Source of the DNA: Nitrospiria bacterium
GTDB lineage: Bacteria > Nitrospirota > Nitrospiria > DASWJH01
Direction of reading: 5' to 3'
NCBI GenBank assembly: GCA_036397255.1
Contig: DASWJH010000046.1
Span: forward strand, 5,020 to 69,019
Length of the DNA: 64,000 nucleotides
The position numbers and the translations under genes are program-made. How positions within the stretch are numbered: the stretch's first letter is position 1; each line of letters opens with the position of its first letter. Of this stretch, positions 1,639 to 20,172 are shown piece after piece. The notes under the pieces were generated by a model. It was given only the letters and a program-made list of their open reading frames with translations, made no database searches and was not told where the DNA came from.

Positions 1639-2085
1639 ATGAAACCCTTAACAATCAAAGAGCGTGATGAGCAAGCCGGGGAAATATTCAGAAAGGTCTT
1701 TCACAAAAAGCCTAAATCCAACATGGACGTGATTGAAATGAGTAAAGAGGGGATTTCCAAAGCATCCCTCATGAATTTTGTGCGTTTTTTGAACTTTTCT
1801 CCGGATCAGGTAGCGCGTATGCTTCCCATTACCCTTCGCACGATTCAGAGGTATTCCAGAAAACAGAAGTTCAACCCTACCGTTTCGGAGCACATTATTC
1901 AGCTGGTGTTTCTCGTGGGAAGAGGCATTGAGGTGTTTGGGTCCCGGGAAAAGTTCATGTCCTGGTTTAATTCTCCAAGTAAAGCCTTGGGAGGGAATGT
2001 TCCCAGCGGTTTGGTCAGCCTTAAAACCGGCGCTCAAATGGTAATGGAAGAGTTGGGTCGGATTGAGTACGGTGTATATGCATGA
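1639..2085 (+). CDS. Xre-like / DUF2384 antitoxin partnered with a RES toxin (ParS/MbcA-like)
   Basis: 148 aa. It sits immediately upstream of the RES-domain gene and overlaps it by 4 bp (ATGA). The C-terminal region is DUF2384-like. Confidence 0.7.
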   Translation: MKPLTIKERDEQAGEIFRKVFHKKPKSNMDVIEMSKEGISKASLMNFVRFLNFSPDQVARMLPITLRTIQRYSRKQKFNPTVSEHIIQLVFLVGRGIEVFGSREKFMSWFNSPSKALGGNVPSGLVSLKTGAQMVMEELGRIEYGVYA

Positions 2086-2546
2086 GGGAGGTTTATCGGA
2101 TTTCTCTCGCCAAGCATGCCCGGGACCTGTCCGGGAGAGGGGCTAGACTGATAGGAGGACGATGGAATAGAAGAGATACGGGGGTGATATATACTTCTGA
2201 ACATCGGTCCCTTGCTGCGATGGAGTATCTGGTCCATGTCTCCTTACCATACCTTCCGGCAGAAATCAAAATTGTCTCGATCGGTGTCCCCGACACAGGT
2301 ATTCCCAAGGAAATTGATCCCGCTAAATTGCCAACTGACTGGAACAGATATCCCGCTCCTTTTTCTTTAGCAGACATCGGGACACAATGGGTATCCAGCA
2401 TGGAAAGTCTTTTATTTCGGGTGCCGTCCGCGGTTGTACCCCATGAGTTTAATATCCTCATTAATCCTGCCCACCCCGAGATGAAGTCCGTCAAAATCCT
2501 CAAAGTTGAAAACTTCGAATACGATAGTAGACTTCACAAGAACTGA
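2082..2546 (+). CDS. RES-domain toxin (ParT/MbcT-like NAD+-targeting toxin)
   Basis: RES signature residues are present: GGRWNRRDTG (R), YTSEHRSLAAMEYLVH (E), and LFRVPSAVVPHEFNILINPAHP (S). Overlaps the upstream antitoxin gene by 4 bp. Confidence 0.8.
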   Translation: MREVYRISLAKHARDLSGRGARLIGGRWNRRDTGVIYTSEHRSLAAMEYLVHVSLPYLPAEIKIVSIGVPDTGIPKEIDPAKLPTDWNRYPAPFSLADIGTQWVSSMESLLFRVPSAVVPHEFNILINPAHPEMKSVKILKVENFEYDSRLHKN

Positions 2547-4064: not shown

Positions 4065-4141
4065 GCCCCCGTAGCTCAGCAGGATAGAGCAGCGGTTTCC
4101 TAAACCGAAGGTCGCGTGTTCAAATCACGCCGGGGGCACCA
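4065..4141 (+). tRNA. tRNA-Arg (anticodon CCT)
   Basis: Cloverleaf parsed by hand: acceptor stem GCCCCCG/CGGGGGC, D-arm GCTC-AGCAGGATA-GAGC, anticodon arm GCGGT-TTCCTAA-ACCGA (anticodon CCT), variable loop AGGTC, T-arm GCGTG-TTCAAAT-CACGC, discriminator A and an encoded CCA. Confidence 0.85.
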
Positions 4142-7010: not shown

Positions 7011-9731
7011 ATGGTTTTTTCTTCGATGGTCTCAAAGATTTCGAATCTCAGGAATAAACTACTGGCAGGTTTCCTTATGGTTTCCATTATTCCGATGTTG
7101 GTAATGATGTTGACCTACCTTTCTTTTTTGGAAAGAAGTTTAGAACATGAGGTAAACGATCGTTTAACCGCTGCTCGGACTGGTGTGGAGATAGAACTGA
7201 GAGAAAGAGAAGGTTTCCTATTGAATGAAATCGAAAGACATGTTTCCCAGCCGATATTAATAAGCACCATGACTCGAAACCAATTAGAATTTTTAGAAGG
7301 AATTTTAACTCATTTTTTACAGTTGTCACAAGCGGATTTGATTCATTTGTTTGATAAAAGCGGTAAACCCATCCTTGGTCTTCAAAAATTAAAAAACGAA
7401 AATTTGGAACCCTTTAAACCTTTACGGACTTCCCAAACAGAGCGGGTGAACTCCGTCTCTAATTTCTCGCCTTATTCCCAGGATCAAGCAGGAGAGGGTT
7501 TCATTTTTGGCCCTCCCTCAACCCCTTTGCAAACACCCCCAAGCATTCAATCGGAAATCATCCGAACTACCCAATTCAATCGGCTTTCCCCGGAAATCAT
7601 GGAAAAATTATCAAAAAACGGGGAAGCCATTATTCGAAACCAACATCCAGAGGGGATTCATATTTCGGTTTTTAAAATTTTTCAATTTTCCGGTCAAACA
7701 TTAGGAGTCCTTCAGGAGGGGATGTTACTGGATCAAAATTTTCTGGATAGTCTAAAAAAAAGGACGGGTCTTGAGGTTGCCCTGATCAATCCACAAGGAA
7801 ATGGAATTATATCCTCTTTTCATCCGGTAGACCATTTAAACCATCAGGAAAACCCAAAAAAAATTGCCGTGAAAAAAATTGGGGGAACAGGATATTTTTA
7901 TACCCTCCTGCCCATTGGACCGAAGGAAAGCCCGGTGAGGGTTGCCCTATTTGAATCAAAAAATGCCCTTACCGCAAGCAAAACCAAAGCAACAGGGTTT
8001 TTCTTTATAATATTTGGAATGATTACTGCTGTGGTAATGGGAGCAAGTTTTTTGTCCGCAAAAGCGATCACCCAGCAACAAAATCTGGCCGAAGAAGCCC
8101 TTGAAGCCAGCCGGGCAAGTTTTCGAAACGTGGTTGAAAAAAGCGGAGATGGAATTATTATCGTAGATATGGAACAGATTATTCGGTTTGTAAATCCATA
8201 CAGCAGGCTATTTTTTGAAAATAAAATGACTGTTTTCCCAGGGAAACCTTTTAATTTTCCTGTCGTTCCCAATGAACCCAAAGAAATTGAGATCATTCGA
8301 ATTTCAGGGGGGATAGGGGTGGGGGAAATGTTGACGGTTGAAACAGAATGGAATGGAAAGCCTGCCCATTTGATATCCATCAGGGATATTACCGATCGGA
8401 AAAAGGCAGAAGAGTTGATCGAGCATCAAGCCTACCATGATGCGTTAACCATGTTACCCAACCGTTTATTGTTTATTGATCGCTTGAACCAGGAATTGGC
8501 CCGGTGCGGATGGAAAAAACAGCCTGTGGGTGTCATATTTCTTGATCTGGACCAATTTAAACAAATCAATGATACCCTAGGACATACTATAGGAGATTTT
8601 CTGCTTCAAGCGGTTGCAAAACGGTTGGCGGGTTGCACGCGGGAGGGAGATACCATTGCCAGATTGGGGGGAGACGAATTCACGATTCTTCTTGCCGATC
8701 TTGCAACAACTCAAGACATTCCAAAAATTGCTTTGAAAATCCTTGAAATCTTTTTAAACCCATTTGAATTGAAGGACCACGAACTGTATATCACTTCGAG
8801 TATGGGGATCAGTATCTTTCCGAATGATGGGAGGGATTCAGAGACGTTGCTTAAAAATGCGGATACAGCCATGTACCGTGCAAAAGAAAACGGGAGAAAT
8901 AATTATCAATTTTACATTCCCGAAATGAACACTCGGGTTTCTGAAAGGCTTGCTTTGGAAAATGGACTCCGCCGTGCCCTGGAGAGAAATGAATTCATTC
9001 TTCATTACCAACCCCAGGTCAACCTCAGCACAGGGCAAATTGTTGGAATGGAAGCCCTCATAAGATGGAATCATCCGGAAAAGGGGTTAATCTCCCCCTA
9101 CAAATTTATACCCCTCGCCGAAGAAACAGGTCTAATTGTTCCCATAGGAGATTGGGTGATCCGAACCGCTTGTGCTGTGGCCAAGGCCATGCAATCGGTT
9201 GGAAATACGGGGATCAAGGTGGCTATTAATTTATCGGCGCGTCAGTTTTTACAAAGAGATCTTATTCAAAAAATTGATTCTGCCCTTAACAAATCCTTCT
9301 TGGATCCCAAATATTTAGAGCTGGAACTGACGGAAAGCATGATTCAAAATGCGGTTTCCACCCATTCAACGCTAAAGAAATTAAATAGTATGGGTATCCA
9401 AATTTCAATTGATGATTTTGGGACAGGATATTCTTCCCTGAGCTATTTAAGTCGATTTCCCATAAGTAAATTGAAGATTGATAAATCCTTTGTGCATGAT
9501 ATTACCACCAATCCGGATCACTCATCCATCGTTGCTGCCATTATCACATTGGCTCACAACCTAAACCTTAAAACAATTGCTGAAGGGGTTGAAACCCTTG
9601 ATCAAATGAACTATTTGAAATCAATCCAGTGTGACGAAATCCAAGGTTTTGTTTTTAGCCCCCCCTTGCCCCCCGATGAAATTATGGGTTTATTGTCCCA
9701 GAGAAGCCCCTTAAAAATTCTTCCAAGATAA
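7011..9731 (+). CDS. Membrane sensor c-di-GMP enzyme with PAS-GGDEF-EAL architecture
   Basis: N-terminal TM helix followed by a large extracytoplasmic/linker region and a second TM helix. A PAS-like segment is present (VVEKSGDGIIIVDMEQIIRFVNP). The GGDEF active site reads RLGGDEF with the canonical GHTIGD upstream. The EAL motif (EALIRW) and the DDFGTGYSS loop are both present. Confidence 0.85.
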   Translation: MVFSSMVSKISNLRNKLLAGFLMVSIIPMLVMMLTYLSFLERSLEHEVNDRLTAARTGVEIELREREGFLLNEIERHVSQPILISTMTRNQLEFLEGILTHFLQLSQADLIHLFDKSGKPILGLQKLKNENLEPFKPLRTSQTERVNSVSNFSPYSQDQAGEGFIFGPPSTPLQTPPSIQSEIIRTTQFNRLSPEIMEKLSKNGEAIIRNQHPEGIHISVFKIFQFSGQTLGVLQEGMLLDQNFLDSLKKRTGLEVALINPQGNGIISSFHPVDHLNHQENPKKIAVKKIGGTGYFYTLLPIGPKESPVRVALFESKNALTASKTKATGFFFIIFGMITAVVMGASFLSAKAITQQQNLAEEALEASRASFRNVVEKSGDGIIIVDMEQIIRFVNPYSRLFFENKMTVFPGKPFNFPVVPNEPKEIEIIRISGGIGVGEMLTVETEWNGKPAHLISIRDITDRKKAEELIEHQAYHDALTMLPNRLLFIDRLNQELARCGWKKQPVGVIFLDLDQFKQINDTLGHTIGDFLLQAVAKRLAGCTREGDTIARLGGDEFTILLADLATTQDIPKIALKILEIFLNPFELKDHELYITSSMGISIFPNDGRDSETLLKNADTAMYRAKENGRNNYQFYIPEMNTRVSERLALENGLRRALERNEFILHYQPQVNLSTGQIVGMEALIRWNHPEKGLISPYKFIPLAEETGLIVPIGDWVIRTACAVAKAMQSVGNTGIKVAINLSARQFLQRDLIQKIDSALNKSFLDPKYLELELTESMIQNAVSTHSTLKKLNSMGIQISIDDFGTGYSSLSYLSRFPISKLKIDKSFVHDITTNPDHSSIVAAIITLAHNLNLKTIAEGVETLDQMNYLKSIQCDEIQGFVFSPPLPPDEIMGLLSQRSPLKILPR

Positions 9732-11566: not shown

Positions 11567-12436
11567 TCAGAAAACGCGATTTCTCCCCGATTGCTTTGCC
11601 TTATAGAGTGCCTGGTCTGCTTTGTCTACGATATTCGTCACAGTGTTGCCATCCTCTGGAAATACCGCAATTCCGATACTGACCGTTAAGGAAATTTCTT
11701 CATCTTTTTTAATTCTTATTTTTTTTGAAGCAACGGCTCTGCGGATTTTTTCTCCGGTTGAGAGGGCGTTTAATCGTGAGGTCTCGGGTAAAAGAAAAGC
11801 AAATTCTTCTCCCCCGTACCGAAACACCTGATCCACCCCTCTTACTTTGGATTGAATTAATTTGCTCACAGCAATTAAAACTTTATCCCCCGAGGGATGC
11901 CCATGGGTGTCATTGACTAATTTGAAATGGTCAATGTCGAGCATTAAAAGGGAAAAACAATGGCCAAAACGCTGAGAGCGGCTTAATTCCCCTTTTATTT
12001 GATGGGTAAATTCCTTTTTATTTAATAAGCCGGTCAACCCATCATGAATGGAAAGATTTTCATAATACTGCAATGGAAAAAGCAAATCACGTATGGAGAC
12101 CACACCCGCGATCTCCCCTTTTTTCTCCACCACCAGATGGCGGATTTTTTTGCATTCCATGAGCTCTTCCGCTTCTCCGATGGTTTTGTTTTCATGGATA
12201 GAGATGACTGGGGCTGACATGACTTCTTTGACACTTACCTTTTGTGGATTTAAACCCTCCACCACAACCTTATGCAATATATCAGTCCCGGTTAATATTC
12301 CAATGATTTCCTCCCCCTGACGGATTAAGAGGCATCCCACACCTGATTCTTTCATAAAATGAACCGCAGTCCATACGGTTGAATCGAATTGAATTGATAA
12401 GGGATTTTCCCTCATGACGTTCTCAACGGAAATCAT
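11567..12436 (-). CDS. CBS-pair-GGDEF diguanylate cyclase
   Basis: Two CBS motifs at the N-terminus. The GGDEF domain has RYGGEEF and DTHGHPSGD, i.e. the canonical Asp position rather than the Ser found in Hypr-type enzymes. Confidence 0.8.
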   Translation of the reverse strand: MISVENVMRENPLSIQFDSTVWTAVHFMKESGVGCLLIRQGEEIIGILTGTDILHKVVVEGLNPQKVSVKEVMSAPVISIHENKTIGEAEELMECKKIRHLVVEKKGEIAGVVSIRDLLFPLQYYENLSIHDGLTGLLNKKEFTHQIKGELSRSQRFGHCFSLLMLDIDHFKLVNDTHGHPSGDKVLIAVSKLIQSKVRGVDQVFRYGGEEFAFLLPETSRLNALSTGEKIRRAVASKKIRIKKDEEISLTVSIGIAVFPEDGNTVTNIVDKADQALYKAKQSGRNRVF

Positions 12437-12472: not shown

Positions 12473-13105
12473 TTATGGCACAACAATGGTGTCCCCGGGG
12501 TGAAGGATGAAATCTCCCAGGGGGCCTTTTCCAGAGACCACATTATCATATTTCAAAGGGATTCTGATTTGTTGCTCTTTTCCTATTCCATCTTTATTGG
12601 GACGAATCACCTGGATTTGGTTTTTCGATGCGAAGGGGGTAAATCCCCCAGCCAGGGAAACACCTTGAAGAACAGTTGCGTATGATTTGACTTGGTATTT
12701 TCCGGGGCGGGTGACCTCACCCAATACATAGAAAAAGTAGCTGTTGACCTCCTTCACCTGAACGGAAACATTCGGAGTCGTCATAAATTCGTTGAGACGA
12801 TATGCAATCCGGTCCGCCAGTTTATCTGCAGTTAAATCAGCGGCAAGGACATCTCCAACCAAGGGCATTGAAATGTAACCATCAGGGCGAATAATGACTT
12901 CGCCAGAAAGATCGGCATTTTTCCAAACGGTAACCTCTAAAACATCCTCAGGCCCAAGAAAAAACTCTACTGGAGGGATGTACTGAACCGGAAACGTATT
13001 GGGTGTAGAGCAGCCCCACAGGGCCAGAAGCGGAAAGAGGAGGCAGCACAATAATGAAATAACTCTCCTGCGTTGTTTCAACATATGTATTTGATTGTAT
13101 TTCAA
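12473..13105 (-). CDS. Wza-like polysaccharide export outer-membrane lipoprotein (Poly_export + SLBB)
   Basis: Lipobox LLALWGCS. The Wza-family core is present: IGPEDVLEVTVW...GEVIIRPDGYISMPLVGDVLAAD-LTADKLADRIAYRLNEF...VSVQVKEVNSYFFYVLGEVTRPGKY. Confidence 0.75.
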   Translation of the reverse strand: MKYNQIHMLKQRRRVISLLCCLLFPLLALWGCSTPNTFPVQYIPPVEFFLGPEDVLEVTVWKNADLSGEVIIRPDGYISMPLVGDVLAADLTADKLADRIAYRLNEFMTTPNVSVQVKEVNSYFFYVLGEVTRPGKYQVKSYATVLQGVSLAGGFTPFASKNQIQVIRPNKDGIGKEQQIRIPLKYDNVVSGKGPLGDFILHPGDTIVVP

Positions 13106-14461: not shown

Positions 14462-17400
14462 TCAAATGTTCCCCACCAAAGGACGCATATGGAAAATTTT
14501 CCTCTTTTCCCATTTTTGAAATAAAAACCTTAAACCCATTAGGAAAGGAACAATAAACATTGCGATATCGACATCTCGGTTTTGGTTGTGGCGGGCATCT
14601 TTCACAAAACCGCATCCTCCTACTGCACTCCCCATATCAGAAATGGCTGAGCCTCCCGATTGGGAGGATACAGTTGGTGGCGGAGTGTTGGACCCCCCTG
14701 AACCCGGCTGAGGGGTGCCTTGGACGGTTACTGGGTTCGTTTGATAATTTCCTTGTCCGTCATAGGAAAAAGCAGAGTAATAATATGTGGTTCCATTTTG
14801 CAGCCCAGTGTGGATAGTACTCTGAACCTCATTGGGAACGCCCGTAAAATCTCCAAGTAATTGCCCATCGTTTACATTTTCAGGAAACCCTCCAGTTGTT
14901 TTGAATACAATTCGGGTCCCGATGTAATCGGGATCTGAAGGGCTCGTCCAGGTTAAGAGAATCTCCTGGTCATTTTCAAAGGCGGAAAATTTTTTGATTT
15001 GGCCGGGGGGAATTTGATCCGGTGCTTTTGGGGTTTTAAAAATTTGATCTAGCGATACCGAAAGATTTCCAGCAGTGTCTAAACTTCTGACCCGAAAATG
15101 GTAGGGAAAATCAGGGGTTAATCCATTGATTGTCATTGAATGGTCCAACATCATGGTAGCGTTAAAAGGGGTTGTGTTTTCGTAGTTTGTGGTTTGCCCA
15201 TATTCGATTTGTGAGGTTGCGGCCTCATTGGTAACCCAAGTGATCAGTATGGTGGTGTTGCTTAAAGAAGTTGTGTTAATGTTTGAAATAACCGGGGGAG
15301 TTTGATCCGGTAAAGAAAGGGTGTTAAAGGTTCCGTCATTCGATACAGAAAGGTTCCCCATGGCATCCATTGTCCGGATTCGAAAATGATAGGTTTTTAA
15401 AGAAGATAAACCAGAAAGGGTGACCTGATGACTCGTTTTTAGGGAAGAATCTAGATTTGATATAAATCCATAAGCGGAGGTTAAACCGAATTCAACTTGG
15501 GAAGTTGCGCCTTCATTAGTAGACCAGTTCACTATGGCACCGGAGCCTGTAATATTGCTGGTGTTGATTCCGGAAATGGATGGAGGAATGGTATCAGGGG
15601 GGGGAGAAGTTGTAAAGGTTTTGTCTGCTGACACCGCTTGGTTTCCAGCGGCATCCATGCTCCGTACCCGGTAATGATAGGTGGTTGATGAGGTCAACCC
15701 GGATAGAGATCTGCTGTGGCTGGTGACTAACGTGGAATTCAAGGCAGAGGTGGACCCATAAGCGGTGGTGGTGCCATACTCCACCTGTGAGGTAGCGCCT
15801 TCACCGGTATTCCAGGTAATGGTGGCGCTGGTGCTGGTGACGGACCCCTCGTTGATGGATGAAATAACAGGGGGGGTGGTATCGGGAAGGGGAGAAGTTG
15901 TAAAGGTTTTGTCTGCTGACACCGTTTGGTTTCCAGCGGCATCCATGCTCCGTACCCGGTAATGATAGGTGGTTGATGAAGTCAACCCGGATAGAGATCT
16001 GCTGTGGCTGGTGACTAATGTGGAATTCAAGGCAGAGGTGGACCCATAGGCGGTGGTGGTGCCATACTCCACCTGTGAGGTAGCGCCTTCATCGGTATTC
16101 CAGGTAATGGTGGCGCTGGTGCTGGTGACGGACCCCTCGTTGATGGATGAAATAACAGGGGGGGTGGTATCGGGAAGAGGAGAAGTTGTAAAGGTATTGT
16201 CTCCTGACACCGCTTGGTTTCCAGCGGCATCTATGCTCCGCACCCGGTAATGATAGGTGTTTGATGAGGTCAACCCGGATAGAGATCTGCTGTGGCTGGT
16301 CACCGGTGTGGAATTCAAGGCAGAGGTGGACCCATAAGACATGGTGGTGCCGTATTCCACTTGGGAGGTCGCCCCTTCATTGGTTGACCATGTGATGACC
16401 GAGGCCGAACTTGAAATATTGCTAGCAGTTAATCCGGAAATAACAGGGGGGGTGGTGTCGGGAGCGGGGAGTGTGGTGAAGGTATTATCCGCTGAGGTGG
16501 CCAGATTACCGGCTGCATCGGAACTTATGACCCGGTAATGATAGGTGGTTGATGAGGTCAACCCGGATAGAGATCTGCTGTGGCTGGTCACCAGCGTGGA
16601 ATTCAGTGCCGAGGTGGACCCATAGGACATGGTGGTGCCGTATTCCACCTGGGAGGTAGCGCCTTCATCCGTTTTCCAGGAAATGGAAACGCTGGTGCTG
16701 GTGACGGAACCTTCTGCAATGGATGAAATAACGGGAGGAGTGATATCGGGAGCGGCAAGTGTGGAAAAGGTATTATCGGCAGAGGTGGCCAGATTTCCTG
16801 CCCCATCTCTGCTCAATACACGGTAATGATAGGTGGTTGATGAGGTCAGTCCGGATAAGGCTCTGCTGTGGCTGGTCACCGGTGTGGAATTCAGTGCGGA
16901 GGTGGACCCATAGGCCGTTGTGGTACCATATTCCACCTGGGATGTTGCGTCTTCATCCGTATTCCAGGTTATTGTAGCGTTGGTACTGGTGACGGAACCC
17001 TCTGTGATAGATGAAATGACAGGAGGGGTGGTATCCGGGGGGGAAGTCGTCGTAAATGTGTTATCCCCAGAATTGCCAAGGTTTCCTACATTATCTCGGC
17101 TTAAAACTCTAAAATGGTAAACGGTTGAAGGCAGTAGTCCACTTAAATCTTGGCTATGGGAAGTAACCAGCGTATTGATTAGGCTGGTTGTAGAACCATA
17201 GGCGGAACTGGTCCCATATTCAATTTGAGTACTGGAAGGTTCGTTTGTTACCCATGTAATGGTTGCCCCATTATTGCTGATACTAAGGGAGGAAATATTT
17301 GAAATGGCGGGTGGGGTAGTATCCGGCGGATTTAATGTGATGAAGGTATTATCTCCCGAAATGGCCATATTTCCTGCTACATCCTGACTGACAACCCGGT

Positions 17401-17929
17401 AATGATAGGTGGTAGAGGGGGTAAGGTTACTCAGGGATCGGCTATGGTTTGTGGTTAGGTTTGAATTGATCGGTGTTGATGAACCGTAATTTGTGGTTAC
17501 CCCGTAATCCACCTGGGATGTTGCCCCTTCATTAGTCGCCCAAACAATGTCCACGCTAGAGCTGCCCATATTGACGGCAGATATCGATGAAATGGCAGGT
17601 GGAGTTATATCCCCGAAACTTTTATTCACCTCGATTGAATAAGGACTTTCATTACCTCCAAAATCATAAGCGGTGACCGCAAAAAAGTAGGTTCCCAAAC
17701 CCAATCCAGTTACGGTGTAAGAGGTCTGGTTCCCAACATCCATAGGGGGACTGTAGGTTCGAGAGGCGGTCCCAACGTAAACTTTATATCCTGCCAAATC
17801 GGGTTCGGTATTGGCATCCCAGCTGAGAAAGGCGTCTCCTGCATAACCCAAGCGGGAAAGTGCTAAAAACACAAATATGAATAAGGTGAGTTTAAAAAAA
17901 CAGGATAATGAGCTTGAAAATTTCATCAT
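14462..17929 (-). CDS. Giant secreted FN3-repeat surface protein (adhesin-like, about 11 tandem fibronectin type III-like modules)
   Basis: Signal peptide MMKFSSSLSCFFKLTLFIFVFLALSRLGYA. Roughly 96-aa modules recur, beginning DTTPPVISSI..ATITWNTDEGATSQVEYGTT.AYGSTSALNSTLVTSHSRSLSGLTSSTTYHYRV. The C-terminus has a G/S/P-rich linker, a GGCG motif, then a hydrophobic helix and a basic tail (IAMFIVPFLMGLRFLFQKWEKRK), which resembles a sorting signal or membrane anchor. Confidence 0.85.
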   Translation of the reverse strand: MMKFSSSLSCFFKLTLFIFVFLALSRLGYAGDAFLSWDANTEPDLAGYKVYVGTASRTYSPPMDVGNQTSYTVTGLGLGTYFFAVTAYDFGGNESPYSIEVNKSFGDITPPAISSISAVNMGSSSVDIVWATNEGATSQVDYGVTTNYGSSTPINSNLTTNHSRSLSNLTPSTTYHYRVVSQDVAGNMAISGDNTFITLNPPDTTPPAISNISSLSISNNGATITWVTNEPSSTQIEYGTSSAYGSTTSLINTLVTSHSQDLSGLLPSTVYHFRVLSRDNVGNLGNSGDNTFTTTSPPDTTPPVISSITEGSVTSTNATITWNTDEDATSQVEYGTTTAYGSTSALNSTPVTSHSRALSGLTSSTTYHYRVLSRDGAGNLATSADNTFSTLAAPDITPPVISSIAEGSVTSTSVSISWKTDEGATSQVEYGTTMSYGSTSALNSTLVTSHSRSLSGLTSSTTYHYRVISSDAAGNLATSADNTFTTLPAPDTTPPVISGLTASNISSSASVITWSTNEGATSQVEYGTTMSYGSTSALNSTPVTSHSRSLSGLTSSNTYHYRVRSIDAAGNQAVSGDNTFTTSPLPDTTPPVISSINEGSVTSTSATITWNTDEGATSQVEYGTTTAYGSTSALNSTLVTSHSRSLSGLTSSTTYHYRVRSMDAAGNQTVSADKTFTTSPLPDTTPPVISSINEGSVTSTSATITWNTGEGATSQVEYGTTTAYGSTSALNSTLVTSHSRSLSGLTSSTTYHYRVRSMDAAGNQAVSADKTFTTSPPPDTIPPSISGINTSNITGSGAIVNWSTNEGATSQVEFGLTSAYGFISNLDSSLKTSHQVTLSGLSSLKTYHFRIRTMDAMGNLSVSNDGTFNTLSLPDQTPPVISNINTTSLSNTTILITWVTNEAATSQIEYGQTTNYENTTPFNATMMLDHSMTINGLTPDFPYHFRVRSLDTAGNLSVSLDQIFKTPKAPDQIPPGQIKKFSAFENDQEILLTWTSPSDPDYIGTRIVFKTTGGFPENVNDGQLLGDFTGVPNEVQSTIHTGLQNGTTYYYSAFSYDGQGNYQTNPVTVQGTPQPGSGGSNTPPPTVSSQSGGSAISDMGSAVGGCGFVKDARHNQNRDVDIAMFIVPFLMGLRFLFQKWEKRKIFHMRPLVGNI
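15450..17000. repeat. Near-identical 288-bp tandem DNA repeats inside the adhesin CDS
   Basis: Shadow ORFs 15739..15942 and 16027..16230 are about 95% identical and sit 288 bp apart. The encoded FN3 modules 5-7 are nearly identical at the protein level. Confidence 0.8.
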
Positions 17930-17948
17930 AACTTTTCCCCTTTACATT

Positions 17949-18068
17949 AAAAAAAAACCGCCAAAGACTTTTCCCCTTTGGCGGCTCGGCGGGCATTTGA
18001 TCCCTGAGGGATCATTAGCCCCGGTGCTCTGCGTCACCACCTTTCGATGGATTTGCTCTGAGCAAAGG
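17949..18068 (-). promoter_or_regulatory. c-di-GMP-I (GEMM-I)-type riboswitch, copy 1 (proximal to the adhesin start), with an intrinsic terminator
   Basis: Minus-strand RNA: CCUUUGCUCAGAGCAAAUCCAUCGAAAGGUGGUGACGCAGAGCACCGGGGCUAAUGAUCCCUCAGGGAUCAAAUGCCCGCCGAGCCGCCAAAGGggaaaagucUUUGGCGG-U9. It matches the GEMM-I core remembered from V. cholerae Vc2 (..GGGCAAACC AUUC GAAA GAGU GGGACGCAAAGCC UCCGGCCUAA..): GCAAA(c/u)C, a 4/5-bp P2 capped by GAAA, the J2/3 GACGCAGAGC, and a P3 with CUAA. The terminator is a perfect 9-bp stem plus U9, and its 5' arm CAAAGG could alternatively form P1 with the 5' CCUUUG. Confidence 0.7.
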
Positions 18069-18192
18069 TATCAAACGAACAAGATGTCCCCAATTTATAT
18101 AGGCTTTGAAAGCCCATCCTTCCTAACCAGTGTGAGATTCCAGGCGGAATTCTCACTTTTTTTATTCGATGGCATCCCCCCTTTCTTTTTTT

Positions 18193-18312
18193 AAAAAAAA
18201 CCGCCAAGGATAGTTTTCCTTTGGTGGCTCGGCGGGCATTTGATCCCTGAGAGATCATTAGCCCCGGTGCTCTGCGTCTCCACCTTTCGATGGGTTTGCT
18301 CTGAGCAAAGGG
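18193..18312 (-). promoter_or_regulatory. c-di-GMP-I (GEMM-I)-type riboswitch, copy 2, with an intrinsic terminator
   Basis: Minus-strand RNA: CCUUUGCUCAGAGCAAACCCAUCGAAAGGUGGAGACGCAGAGCACCGGGGCUAAUGAUCUCUCAGGGAUCAAAUGCCCGCCGAGCCACCAAAGGaaaacuauCCUUGGCGG-U8. The core is identical to copy 3. The terminator stem has one mismatch and one bulge. Confidence 0.7.
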
Positions 18313-18391
18313 AATAAAAAGTTAAATTTTTTGGGTTTAATTTTAAAAAACCATAAAGTGTGATTCCCCTATATTGGTTTTAGGTCAAAAT

Positions 18392-18507
18392 AAAAAAGCC
18401 ACCAAAAAGAATCCTTTGGCGGCTCGGCGGGCATTTGATCCCTGAGAGATCATTAGCCCCGGTGCTCTGCGTCTCCACCTTTCGATGGGTTTGCTCTGAG
18501 CAAAGGG
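18392..18507 (-). promoter_or_regulatory. c-di-GMP-I (GEMM-I)-type riboswitch, copy 3 (promoter-proximal), with an intrinsic terminator
   Basis: Same aptamer core as copy 2. The terminator is GCCGCCAAAGGauucUUUUUGGUGGC followed by a U-rich run (9 bp including one G.U pair). Confidence 0.7.
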
Positions 18508-18546
18508 TATTTACTTTATTTAGTTTTTTAAATTTCTTGAAACTGG

Positions 18547-18575
18547 AAATTACACCTGTTTTTAAAATATGTCAA
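18547..18575 (-). promoter_or_regulatory. Sigma70-like promoter driving the riboswitch array and adhesin gene
   Basis: On the minus strand: TTGACA (18575..18570), a 17-nt spacer, then TAATTT (18552..18547). This places the TSS about 25-30 nt upstream of riboswitch copy 3. Confidence 0.5.
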
Positions 18576-19008
18576 GCTTTAAGATTGCAATTTAAAAAAA
18601 TCATTCAAAGATTCCCCCCTTATAACAACCCGACCAAGCCGGGTTGGGTAAAAAGGCTTAAAGAGGTTTCGTGATTGTTCGATCTAACTTTTGTGATGGT
18701 TCCCTTTTTTGGTGCATTTCAAATGCCAAACCCAATTTGGATTTCAAAAAGCATAAAAATTTCAAAATGAATTTGTAAACAATCAACCAGTTAGATCGAA
18801 CTGAATTTTTCTTGATGAGTCAAATTCGTAATGGGTTCGAATAGAATTCCGGAATCGACCTACATAGGGTTGTTCAAAAAGGGCACACTTTTTATGAGAA
18901 AATTTGAAAATCCCAGAAGGATGGGCTTATAATGCTTCGAAAAGGCGGAAATTTCTGGAAAATTTTCCCAACCCACAGGAACCAGCGCTTTTAAAGGGAG
19001 GTTCAAAT

Positions 19009-19629: not shown

Positions 19630-20172
19630 ATGGCAAAGCGATTGGCAAAAGTTATTTTAGTACAACAGGAAATCGAAAGGGCTTTAAATCGGATTTCCCA
19701 TGAAATATTGGAACGACATTCTGGGGCGAAAGAAATTGCTTTGGTGGGAATCAGAACCTGCGGGGTTCACCTCGCCCACCGGTTGGTAAAAAAGATAAAA
19801 GAAATTGAAGGAGTGGAGGTCCCCATTGGGATTTTGGATATAACCCTCTACAGGGATGACCTAGCAACCAAACGCGGACAAGCTGCCCTTAAAAAAACCG
19901 AAATACCTTTTTCAATTTCTCAACAACATATTATTTTAGTCGATGATGTTCTTTTTACAGGGAGGACCATTCGCGCTGCCATGGATGGGCTGGTTGACTT
20001 TGGGAGGCCCCGATCCATCCAACTGGCCATTTTGGTGGATCGGGGGCACCGGGAACTTCCCATTCGAGCGGATTATATCGGAAAGAATATTCCCACCTCT
20101 ATTTCCGAAGAAGTCAAAGTATTACTTGAGGAAGAGGGGGAGGAGGATCGTGTGGTTTTATTCTCGAGTTAA
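19630..20172 (+). CDS. pyrR: Bifunctional pyrimidine operon regulator / uracil phosphoribosyltransferase PyrR
   Basis: PRTase motif [18 protein letters not shown]. The PyrR N-terminal region is conserved. Confidence 0.9.

Follow-up and report, generated by a model that had tools for sequence, protein, structure and literature searches.

Three tandem aptamers precede a gene for an FN3-repeat protein

We analyzed a 64,000-nucleotide (nt) stretch of contig DASWJH010000046.1 from a Nitrospiria bacterium (hereafter, the window), in which a gene for an FN3-repeat surface protein is preceded by three tandem aptamers of the cyclic di-GMP (c-di-GMP) class I, or GEMM-I, riboswitch family. A scan of the whole window with the Rfam covariance models (Infernal cmscan) returned four matches above the gathering score, namely one tRNA and three full-length c-di-GMP-I riboswitches (RF01051, gathering score 35 bits). 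The three RF01051 matches, all on the minus strand (18415-18505, 18220-18310, and 17977-18067), score 51.3-52.2 bits and each span model positions 1-87 of 87. Aptamer 3 is the 5'-most in the transcript (18413..18506, minus strand; 51.9 bits with RF01051 and 83.9 bits with R1, a covariance model of our own described below), followed by aptamer 2 (18218..18311, minus strand; 51.3 and 82.6 bits) and aptamer 1, the nearest to the gene (17975..18068, minus strand; 52.2 and 83.7 bits). The gaps between them are 101 and 149 nt, and a hairpin with a U tract follows each, so that a single leader, which takes in 17949-18507, holds three complete riboswitch units in tandem.

The gene that follows (14462..17929, minus strand) encodes, by translation and Pfam matches, a predicted secreted protein of 1155 amino acids (aa) with a signal peptide, ∼10 repeats of the FN3/Pur_ac_phosph_N type, and a C-terminal GGCGF motif, transmembrane segment, and basic tail. 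Its start codon is at 17929, and a Shine-Dalgarno sequence, AAAGGGG, stands before the start and after the terminator of unit 1. A candidate promoter, picked out by eye, lies at 18540..18573 on the minus strand, with a -35 TTGACA (18573-18568) and a TAATTT/TGTAAT-like -10 element ∼30 nt upstream of aptamer 3; a consensus promoter scan did not report a promoter at this position.

Helices P1, P2, and P3, the GAAA tetraloop, the receptor-like CUAA...AUG motif, A47, and C92 are intact in all three aptamers. Every copy also carries the two ligand-contact motifs, GACGC-A, which holds the intercalating A47, and G/A-C-C, which holds C92, the Watson-Crick partner of the ligand's β guanine. The copies differ among themselves at no more than four positions; relative to units 1 and 3, aptamer 2 carries G91A, so that its J1/3 reads A91-C92. 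The three are recent duplicates, and any residue that they share counts as one inherited state and a single evolutionary observation rather than three.

Position 20 is an adenine in all three aptamers

In aptamers of this family, G20 (Vc2 numbering) pairs with the Hoogsteen face of one ligand guanine (Gα), and C92 pairs with the other (Gβ) (PMC6140456). A first-pass annotation of this DNA had proposed that the G20 equivalent is A in all three copies, using a numbering that it allowed might be off by one, and had named a covariance-model alignment as the check. In the Infernal alignment to RF01051, model position 11 (consensus G, unpaired, directly 5' of the G-C and C-G pairs that open the GCAAA helix) is A, not G, in three of three copies, each reading ..CUCAG-A-GCAAA... 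These adenines lie at 18495, 18300, and 18057 in aptamers 3, 2, and 1. In aptamer 3, the A terminates J1/2 CUCAGA within a P1 of CCUUUG/CAAAGG, and the remaining pocket residues are G48 (18467), C90 (18421), and C92 (18419); the corresponding G48 and C92 are at 18272 and 18224 in aptamer 2 and at 18029 and 17981 in aptamer 1. A second deviation from the consensus is found in the window aptamers, where the second nucleotide after the P2 helix is G (GACGC-A-G-AGC; consensus A-A).

The mapping of position 20 rests on the Cd1 numbering of PMC9262584, in which G11 of Cd1 corresponds to Vc2 G20 and the ligand forms its Watson-Crick pair with C87; in the sequence given in its supplement, G11 stands directly 5' of GCAAA, and G86-C87 fall within UUG-CC, with C87 as the first C. 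The Gs1761 aptamer is built of P1 (1-8/76-84), J1/2 (9-14), P2 (15-40), J2/3 (A41), and J1/3 (G74-C75) (PMC6274999), and its A14, the G20 equivalent (PMC6140456), is the last J1/2 nucleotide before P2. The Cd1 G11 and Gs1761 A14 mappings agree, and the annotation's numbering was correct. A separate Vc2 numbering matched at G20 and A47 and was off by one at C92; the Cd1 mapping was used in its place.

The annotation's premises, that G20 contacts the Hoogsteen face of one c-di-GMP guanine and that natural A20 aptamers of Geobacter are selective for cGAMP (3',3'-cyclic GMP-AMP), agree with PMC6140456 and PMC6456294. An A at the G20 position together with a retained C92, the combination that defines GEMM-Ib (PMC6140456, PMC9481103), is present in the window aptamers. 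With A at position 20, cGAMP can be bound, and selectivity for c-di-GMP returns on mutation to G (A20G; PMC6140456, PMC6456294, PMC9481103): A14 of Gs1761 reads Aα (PMC6140456), and A20G turns Gm0970 from cGAMP- to c-di-GMP-selective (PMC6456294). Known A20 aptamers nevertheless range from Gm0970, which is ∼1600-fold cGAMP-selective (PMC8835794), to the c-di-GMP-preferring Cbe 1-2 (PMC6140456), and Vc2 G20A binds c-di-GMP at 53 nM via an N1-protonated adenine and cGAMP at 120 nM (PMC6140456). On these reports, A20 is needed for tight cGAMP binding yet does not predict selectivity; Vc2 G20A, Cbe 1-2, and a Desulfobacca variant (see below) still bind c-di-GMP. We rejected c-di-AMP as the ligand on the grounds that C92 is retained, c-di-AMP binding by this scaffold having been reported for a G20A/C92U double mutant (PMC7288161).

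A conserved class couples A20 to a G48:C90 pair

We searched Joint Genome Institute (JGI) metagenomes with the pattern GCAAA-N6-GAAA-N6-GACGCAGAGC, which leaves position 20 free and fixes G48, and recovered at least 120 metagenome stretches. Among the matches listed, A20 is present in 123/124 aptamers, J1/2 is exactly CUCAGA in 113, and in 103 the 3' junction (G/A)GCC-GC is followed by a strand complementary to the 5 nt before J1/2. P1 varies with its pairing kept (CGCUG/CAGCG, CUUUG/CAAAG, UUCUG/CAGAA, and others). Pairwise identity among 97 distinct class members averages 0.74 with a minimum of 0.46, and no other class member listed is more than 74% identical to the window copies. An A20 held in 123 of 124 such diverse relatives is therefore not drift. 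As a control, the same pattern with A48 was run on viral contigs, a different collection from that of the G48 set, and gave 52 non-redundant aptamers with G20 in 48 and A20 in four; this control set contained no true A20/G48 aptamer.

R1 was built from 20 sequences and searched against all fetched loci. Pairing holds in 89-93% of the cells across 116 distinct relatives, with double changes at 18-19 pairs, compared with 23-49% pairing in slid-register controls; the three-helix junction, with its GNRA tetraloop and P3 receptor, thus has helices supported by covariation. Columns 48 and 90 hold G-C in 94 sequences, A-U in 11, and G-U in three, whereas in the Rfam register (49-90) pairing falls to 12%. 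The 48:90 pairing matches A42-U73 in the Gs1761 structure; in simulations of that structure, A42 N3/O2' hydrogen-bonds to the α nucleotide of the ligand with ∼20% occupancy (PMC6274999). The class thus changes position 20 in concert with the 48:90 pair, both of them facing the α base. We conclude that the sequences probably define a distinct, conserved GEMM-I subclass, marked by J1/2 CUCAGA, A20, and G48:C90 in place of A48:U90.

The genes downstream of the class are alike. Big_2 (Ig-like) domains occur in 51 of 72 downstream proteins and fn3 in 6 of 72, a pattern that the window FN3 protein fits. Homologues of one such protein are named Gemmatimonadota, Gemmatimonadaceae, and Gemmatimonas in NCBI; an Ig-like homologue from Gemmatimonas (P0033) lacks a leader altogether. 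The closest relatives of the window's PyrB come from Nitrospirota metagenome-assembled genomes (MAGs) at 69-71% identity, a weak assignment. No GEMM-I element was found at the pyr loci of the nearest Nitrospirota MAGs, nor by a regular-expression search over all 80 genome loci.

Each aptamer is predicted to compete with a terminator

Terminators were located by a simple terminator scan and by minimum-free-energy (MFE) folding of each ligand-free unit. The scan placed the unit-1 terminator at 17946..17987 (minus strand), where a 13-bp stem, GAGCCGCCAAAGG/CUUUGGCGGUU, is followed by U9 (-52.8 kcal/mol, z = -4.8), and the unit-3 terminator at 18390..18425 (minus strand), with the stem GAGCCGCCAAAGG/CUUUUUGGUGGCUU and a U run (MFE -47.0 kcal/mol, z = -3.4). 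The unit-2 terminator (18193..18230, minus strand; GAGCCACCAAAGG...CCUUGGCGG and U8; z = -2.6) came from the MFE fold; it is weaker than the other two, has internal mismatches, and was missed by the scan. Folded alone without ligand, each unit adopts its terminator. In these MFE folds, the 5' arm of the terminator, GAGCC-GC-CAAAGG, consists of the outer 3' strand of P3, J1/3 (G91, C92), and the 3' strand of P1. Because this arm overlaps the 3' strand of P1, aptamer and terminator are mutually exclusive, and ligand should block termination. The same logic has been described for the Geobacter pilM ON switch (PMC9262584).

We reasoned that each unit acts as a transcriptional ON switch, the ON direction following from the predicted structure and from the behavior of the family. 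In the ligand-free transcript, GAGCC-GC-CAAAGG would pair with the downstream CUUUGGCGG and form the terminator. In the bound state, the dinucleotide would be held in the three-way junction, with C92 pairing with its guanine, A47 intercalating, and A20 reading the Hoogsteen face of the other (α) base; P1 (CCUUUG/CAAAGG) would then form, the terminator would not, and RNA polymerase would read on. With three such checkpoints in series, the FN3 surface-protein gene should turn on steeply, in an almost digital manner. The series fits the "pseudo-cooperative" tandems covered by a review that counted 347 doublets and 12 triplets of c-di-GMP-I (Sherlock et al. 2022, PMC9481103), and tandem and triple switches are reported to give more digital control (PMC9481103).

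Two further features of the leader were seen. A recurring, AAAGGGG-like box (GGGGGAAUC, GGGGAAUC, and GGGGGGAUG) stands upstream of each aptamer on the minus strand, at 18590-18625, 18355-18375, and 18175-18195; this Shine-Dalgarno-like recurrence suggests that the ancestral duplicated unit included the segment from terminator to Shine-Dalgarno sequence. Within the spacer between units 2 and 1, a hairpin, GTGAGATTCCAGGCGGAATTCTCAC, with T7 (18137-18165) resembles an intrinsic terminator on the plus strand. No plus-strand gene ends near it, and on the minus strand the A/U run precedes the hairpin rather than following it.

A-type and canonical G-type aptamers share leaders

Nineteen canonical aptamers (G20, A48, mostly U90, J1/2 ACAAAG-like) also came out of the R1 search of these metagenome loci. 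Seventeen leaders combine one A-type with one G-type aptamer 60-100 nt apart, in the order A then G in 14 and G then A in three (L104:10455-10733, L098:5690-5952, L095:6709-6986 on the minus strand, L179:1583-1856, and 13 further loci, L120, L131, L100, L137, L168, L088, L141, L151, L206, L174, L099, L094, and L172). Where inspected, the A-type aptamer comes with a terminator of its own, and the G-type aptamer lies directly against the Shine-Dalgarno sequence and start codon of a gene for a Big_2 Ig-like lipoprotein. Among the loci examined, A-A doublets number three, and the A-A-A triplet occurs only in the window. The coexistence of both pocket types, which stay distinct within the same genomes and leaders, argues that they are not interchangeable and suggests different ligands, or one ligand bound at very different affinity or kinetics. 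A hetero-tandem leader could be a natural two-input gate; the c-di-GMP-I/c-AMP-GMP pair is not listed in Table 2 of a 2022 review of tandem riboswitches (PMC9481103).

The sole aptamer of A-type context with G20 (CUCAGG...GACGCAGAGC...GGCC-GC) is at L126:1603-1694, and a canonical G-type aptamer follows it at 1787-1880. It may be a natural "revertant."

Gene neighborhood in the window

Two GGDEF proteins are encoded in the window, and both have the canonical Asp, as the first-pass annotation had noted. One is a CBS-GGDEF diguanylate cyclase by Pfam (11567..12436, minus strand; GHPSGD, with a GGEEF motif), and the other is a GGDEF-EAL protein, also by Pfam (7011..9731, plus strand; GHTIGD). A gene for a Wza-like polysaccharide export protein (Poly_export and SLBB; 12473..13105, minus strand) lies upstream of the CBS-GGDEF gene. 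Both genes lie downstream of the FN3 gene on the same strand, with a 157-aa open reading frame (ORF) without a family match on the opposite strand in between. The segment 11567-13105 (minus strand) looks like a small surface/biofilm neighborhood.

The FN3 gene has near-identical internal repeats with a period of ∼288 nt, which produce a ladder of spurious ORFs at 15739, 16027, and 16603. Its protein ends in GGCGF, a transmembrane helix, and KRK, with a sub-threshold NCBIfam match to the MXAN_2561 MYXO-CTERM-anchored family, and this end may be a sorting signal. A PyrR-like gene (19630-20172) stands before pyrB in the window, with no Rfam PyrR match at the gathering score; PyrR-binding attenuators precede pyr genes in the nearest Nitrospirota MAGs (L007:6535-6638 and L008:9293-9413) and in a Proteobacteria MAG (L012:944-1043). 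Near the window's left end lies a gene (2082-2546, plus strand) for a protein with a RES domain, the toxin of RES-Xre type systems, close to the tRNA (4065-4138, plus strand).

Discussion

Which ligand do the aptamers bind?

Overall, we favor, at a probability of roughly 60%, the reading that the three units in the window are functional transcriptional ON switches and belong to a distinct A20/G48:C90 subclass, which would bind 3',3'-cGAMP at least as well as c-di-GMP. The ligand would be a 3',3'-cyclic dinucleotide with guanine in the β site, and the α site would be adapted to adenine; in vitro binding of 3',3'-cGAMP is therefore expected to be at least equal to that of c-di-GMP. The alignments support an altered α-base site by way of the near-invariance of A20, the coupled change at 48:90, and the coexistence with canonical aptamers. 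The physiological signal is a separate matter: cGAMP or another adenine-containing dinucleotide has close to an even chance, c-di-GMP sensed at lowered affinity is an appreciable possibility somewhat short of even, and the remaining probability falls to something else. That the class is specific for 3',3'-cGAMP or another adenine-containing dinucleotide and evolved separately from Geobacter GEMM-Ib we hold tentatively, as falling somewhat short of an even chance. The annotation's "cGAMP or promiscuous" thus named the right range, and the alteration of the α site extends across the class, but the aptamers are not of the Geobacter GEMM-Ib type and A20 alone does not confer selectivity.

Several observations weigh against a cGAMP ligand. 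In J1/2 and at the base of P2, the class resembles Vc2 rather than Geobacter; Vc2 G20A is bispecific with a slight preference for c-di-GMP, and Cbe 1-2 prefers c-di-GMP (PMC6140456). Mutations in lower P2 affect selectivity, in the account of Ren 2015 given in PMC9262584, and the class keeps the canonical lower P2. The coupling of A20 to G48:C90 could partly reflect common descent, the 48:90 change being essentially one event between two classes. Adhesin-like targets are the classic c-di-GMP ON regulon. The annotation saw no evident source of cGAMP in the window, and Pfam likewise found no Hypr (Ser/Thr) GGDEF, SMODS/CD-NTase, or DncV-like protein among window ORFs of at least 150 aa; no cGAMP synthase was present among the called genes and precomputed Pfam matches in the 10 kb beyond the window. 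A motif scan of ∼0.8 Mb, made up of the window and ∼0.73 Mb of sequence around class members, detected no Ser/Thr-type GGDEF in this very small share of each genome. The ∼0.73 Mb contain four GGDEF genes, all Asp-type and all just upstream of an A-type aptamer, ending a few hundred nt before it (L087:∼5567, L128:∼368, L165:∼952 on the minus strand, and L167:∼10232). This survey favors c-di-GMP, though it samples little of each genome. The motifs of these four genes read NDTFGHV[AS]GD or NDRHGHDVGD, and the genes in L087, L128, and L165 look orthologous.

A serious alternative, if on balance a somewhat unlikely one, is that these are ordinary c-di-GMP riboswitches served by canonical GGDEF enzymes such as the two encoded in the window, in which A20 and G48:C90 lower the affinity or speed the kinetics so that a kinetically controlled switch responds at higher c-di-GMP. 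It accords with the tight c-di-GMP binding of Vc2 G20A (53 nM, through the protonated adenine) and of Cbe 1-2 (30 nM) (PMC6140456), with the Vc2-like J1/2 and lower P2, with the canonical Asp in both window GGDEFs and in all four near class members, and with targets that are adhesin-like surface proteins. It also accords with the hetero-tandem leaders, where the examined A-types have terminators and their G-type partners look translational, which fits a kinetic/thermodynamic split for a single ligand. Under such tuning, however, G20 should be tolerated or even favored, yet it occurs in one of ∼125 diverse class members while canonical aptamers in the same leaders keep G20, and a second residue that contacts the α base has changed in concert. 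We also know of no documented case of affinity tuning through a pocket-residue change.

It is improbable that the class recognizes some other ligand that keeps a guanine for C92, such as pApG or pGpA (linear dinucleotides) or a different product of a CD-NTase. Neither validated type has the same pocket, the differences being at J1/2 and at positions 48 and 90, and the class dominates lineages without described cGAMP signaling (the Gemmatimonadota-named homologues and the Nitrospirota-like window contig); variant "snuggler" aptamers with new ligands are also known (PMC7266159, PMC5473149). Against this, A47, C92, A18, and the overall scaffold are unchanged, the sole alterations are of a kind known or expected to shift recognition at the α site from G to A, and the class is associated with no enzyme that would point to another ligand. 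Finally, a neutral or degenerate change in decaying duplicate aptamers, suggested by near-identical recent duplicates whose shared A was inherited once, is very improbable and was rejected on class-level conservation: helices, tetraloop, the CUAA..AUG motif, A47, C92, and matched terminators are intact in all three copies, and the A is kept in 123/124 relatives at a mean identity of 74%.

Novelty and significance

The A-for-G change at position 20, cGAMP riboswitches, and triple tandems are already known, and cGAMP-sensing riboswitches have so far been established in Geobacter and relatives. In the accessible literature, a comparison outside which Kellenberger 2015, Nelson 2015, and Ren 2015 stand, we found no CUCAGA/A20/G48:C90 class and no report of its near-exclusive Ig-like/FN3 link, of lineages beyond known cGAMP users, or of pairing with canonical aptamers. 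Literature searches with the sequences CUCAGAGCAAA and GACGCAGAGC gave only unrelated primer matches. Further cGAMP-sensing RNAs are expected elsewhere (PMC8835794), and cGAMP pathways are apparently narrowly distributed (bioRxiv 10.1101/600031).

An A20 subclass that is large and conserved, has a coordinated second change in its pocket, and often shares a leader with a canonical c-di-GMP aptamer is a concrete and cheaply testable candidate from abundant soil and sediment lineages. If the class is cGAMP-specific, riboswitch-based cGAMP signaling would govern surface-adhesin expression in Gemmatimonadota-like and Nitrospirota-like bacteria, in which, to our knowledge, no cGAMP pathway has been described, and the 17 leaders with both aptamer types would act on adhesin genes as natural logic gates with two inputs, cGAMP AND c-di-GMP. 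A preference for cGAMP would extend this second-messenger system to new phyla; binding of c-di-GMP would instead provide an example of natural affinity tuning by pocket editing.

Comparison with known systems

The Vc2 c-di-GMP-I aptamer (PDB 3IRW, 3MUM, 4YB1) shares with the window aptamers its fold, the G21-C46/C22-G45 base of P2, the GAAA tetraloop, A47, and C92, and its G20A mutant has the same A as the reader of the α site. Unlike the window class, with G48:C90 and a terminator that competes with P1, Vc2 naturally has G20 and A48:U90, and G20A is artificial and bispecific. J1/2 of Vc2, CACAGG, is nearly the same as the window CUCAGA.

Among natural A20 aptamers outside Geobacter, Cbe 1-2 of Clostridium beijerinckii likewise illustrates A20 alone without cGAMP selectivity; it is reported to be bispecific or to prefer c-di-GMP, with a ∼15-fold preference for c-di-GMP (30 nM versus 463 nM for cGAMP; PMC6140456). 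The sporadic A20 aptamers of the viral contigs have A48 and canonical J1/2 and look like single substitutions, not a coherent class. An aptamer of Desulfobacca acetoxidans cluster 3 (Sherlock et al. 2022), compared here by its description, has A for G at the same position and is a predicted ON switch; it is otherwise highly similar to its G-type neighbors and is paired with adenosylcobalamin (AdoCbl) switches. This A-variant gained affinity for cGAMP and largely kept that for c-di-GMP (PMC9481103). In arrangement, the window leader resembles the Bacillus thuringiensis triplet Bc3-5, in which three complete riboswitches with their own platforms occupy one leader before an adhesin-type gene (PMC9481103). 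Bc3-5 is validated as c-di-GMP-responsive (PMC9481103), whereas the window triplet is all A20/G48:C90.

With Geobacter GEMM-Ib (Gs1761, Gm0970, pilM), the window aptamers share A at the G20 position, C92, A47, and a transcriptional ON layout in which aptamer and terminator exclude each other, and tandem copies occur in Geobacter too (PMC6456294, PMC9262584). The pockets differ: Geobacter has J1/2 ACAAUA, a P2 that opens with C-G/U-G (CUAAA...GACGG), and A48, whereas the window has CUCAGA, G-C/C-G, and G48, and the first P2 pair, C15-G40 in Geobacter, is G-C in the window class. The pilM sequence reads ..CG-ACAAUA-CUAAA..GACGG-AAAGCC..GGGAU-GC-CGAAAU (PMC9262584 supplement), and its J1/2 and C-G opening pair match the Gs1761 pocket residues G8, A11, A12, U13, A14, and C15 (PMC7288161; the pocket is also described in PMC6274999). 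In alignment with pilM, this Geobacter-type context (J1/2 A-C-A-A-U-A, C-G/U-G P2 base) is absent from the window aptamers. The Geobacter regulon comprises cytochromes and pili, and its cGAMP comes from the Hypr GGDEF GacA; neither holds for the window, where the downstream gene encodes an FN3-repeat surface protein and has no association with exoelectrogenesis genes. Geobacter members favor cGAMP over c-di-GMP by ∼1000-fold or more, and this selectivity is not simply transferable to a pocket unlike theirs; annotators should not read "A at G20" as meaning "Geobacter-type cGAMP switch."

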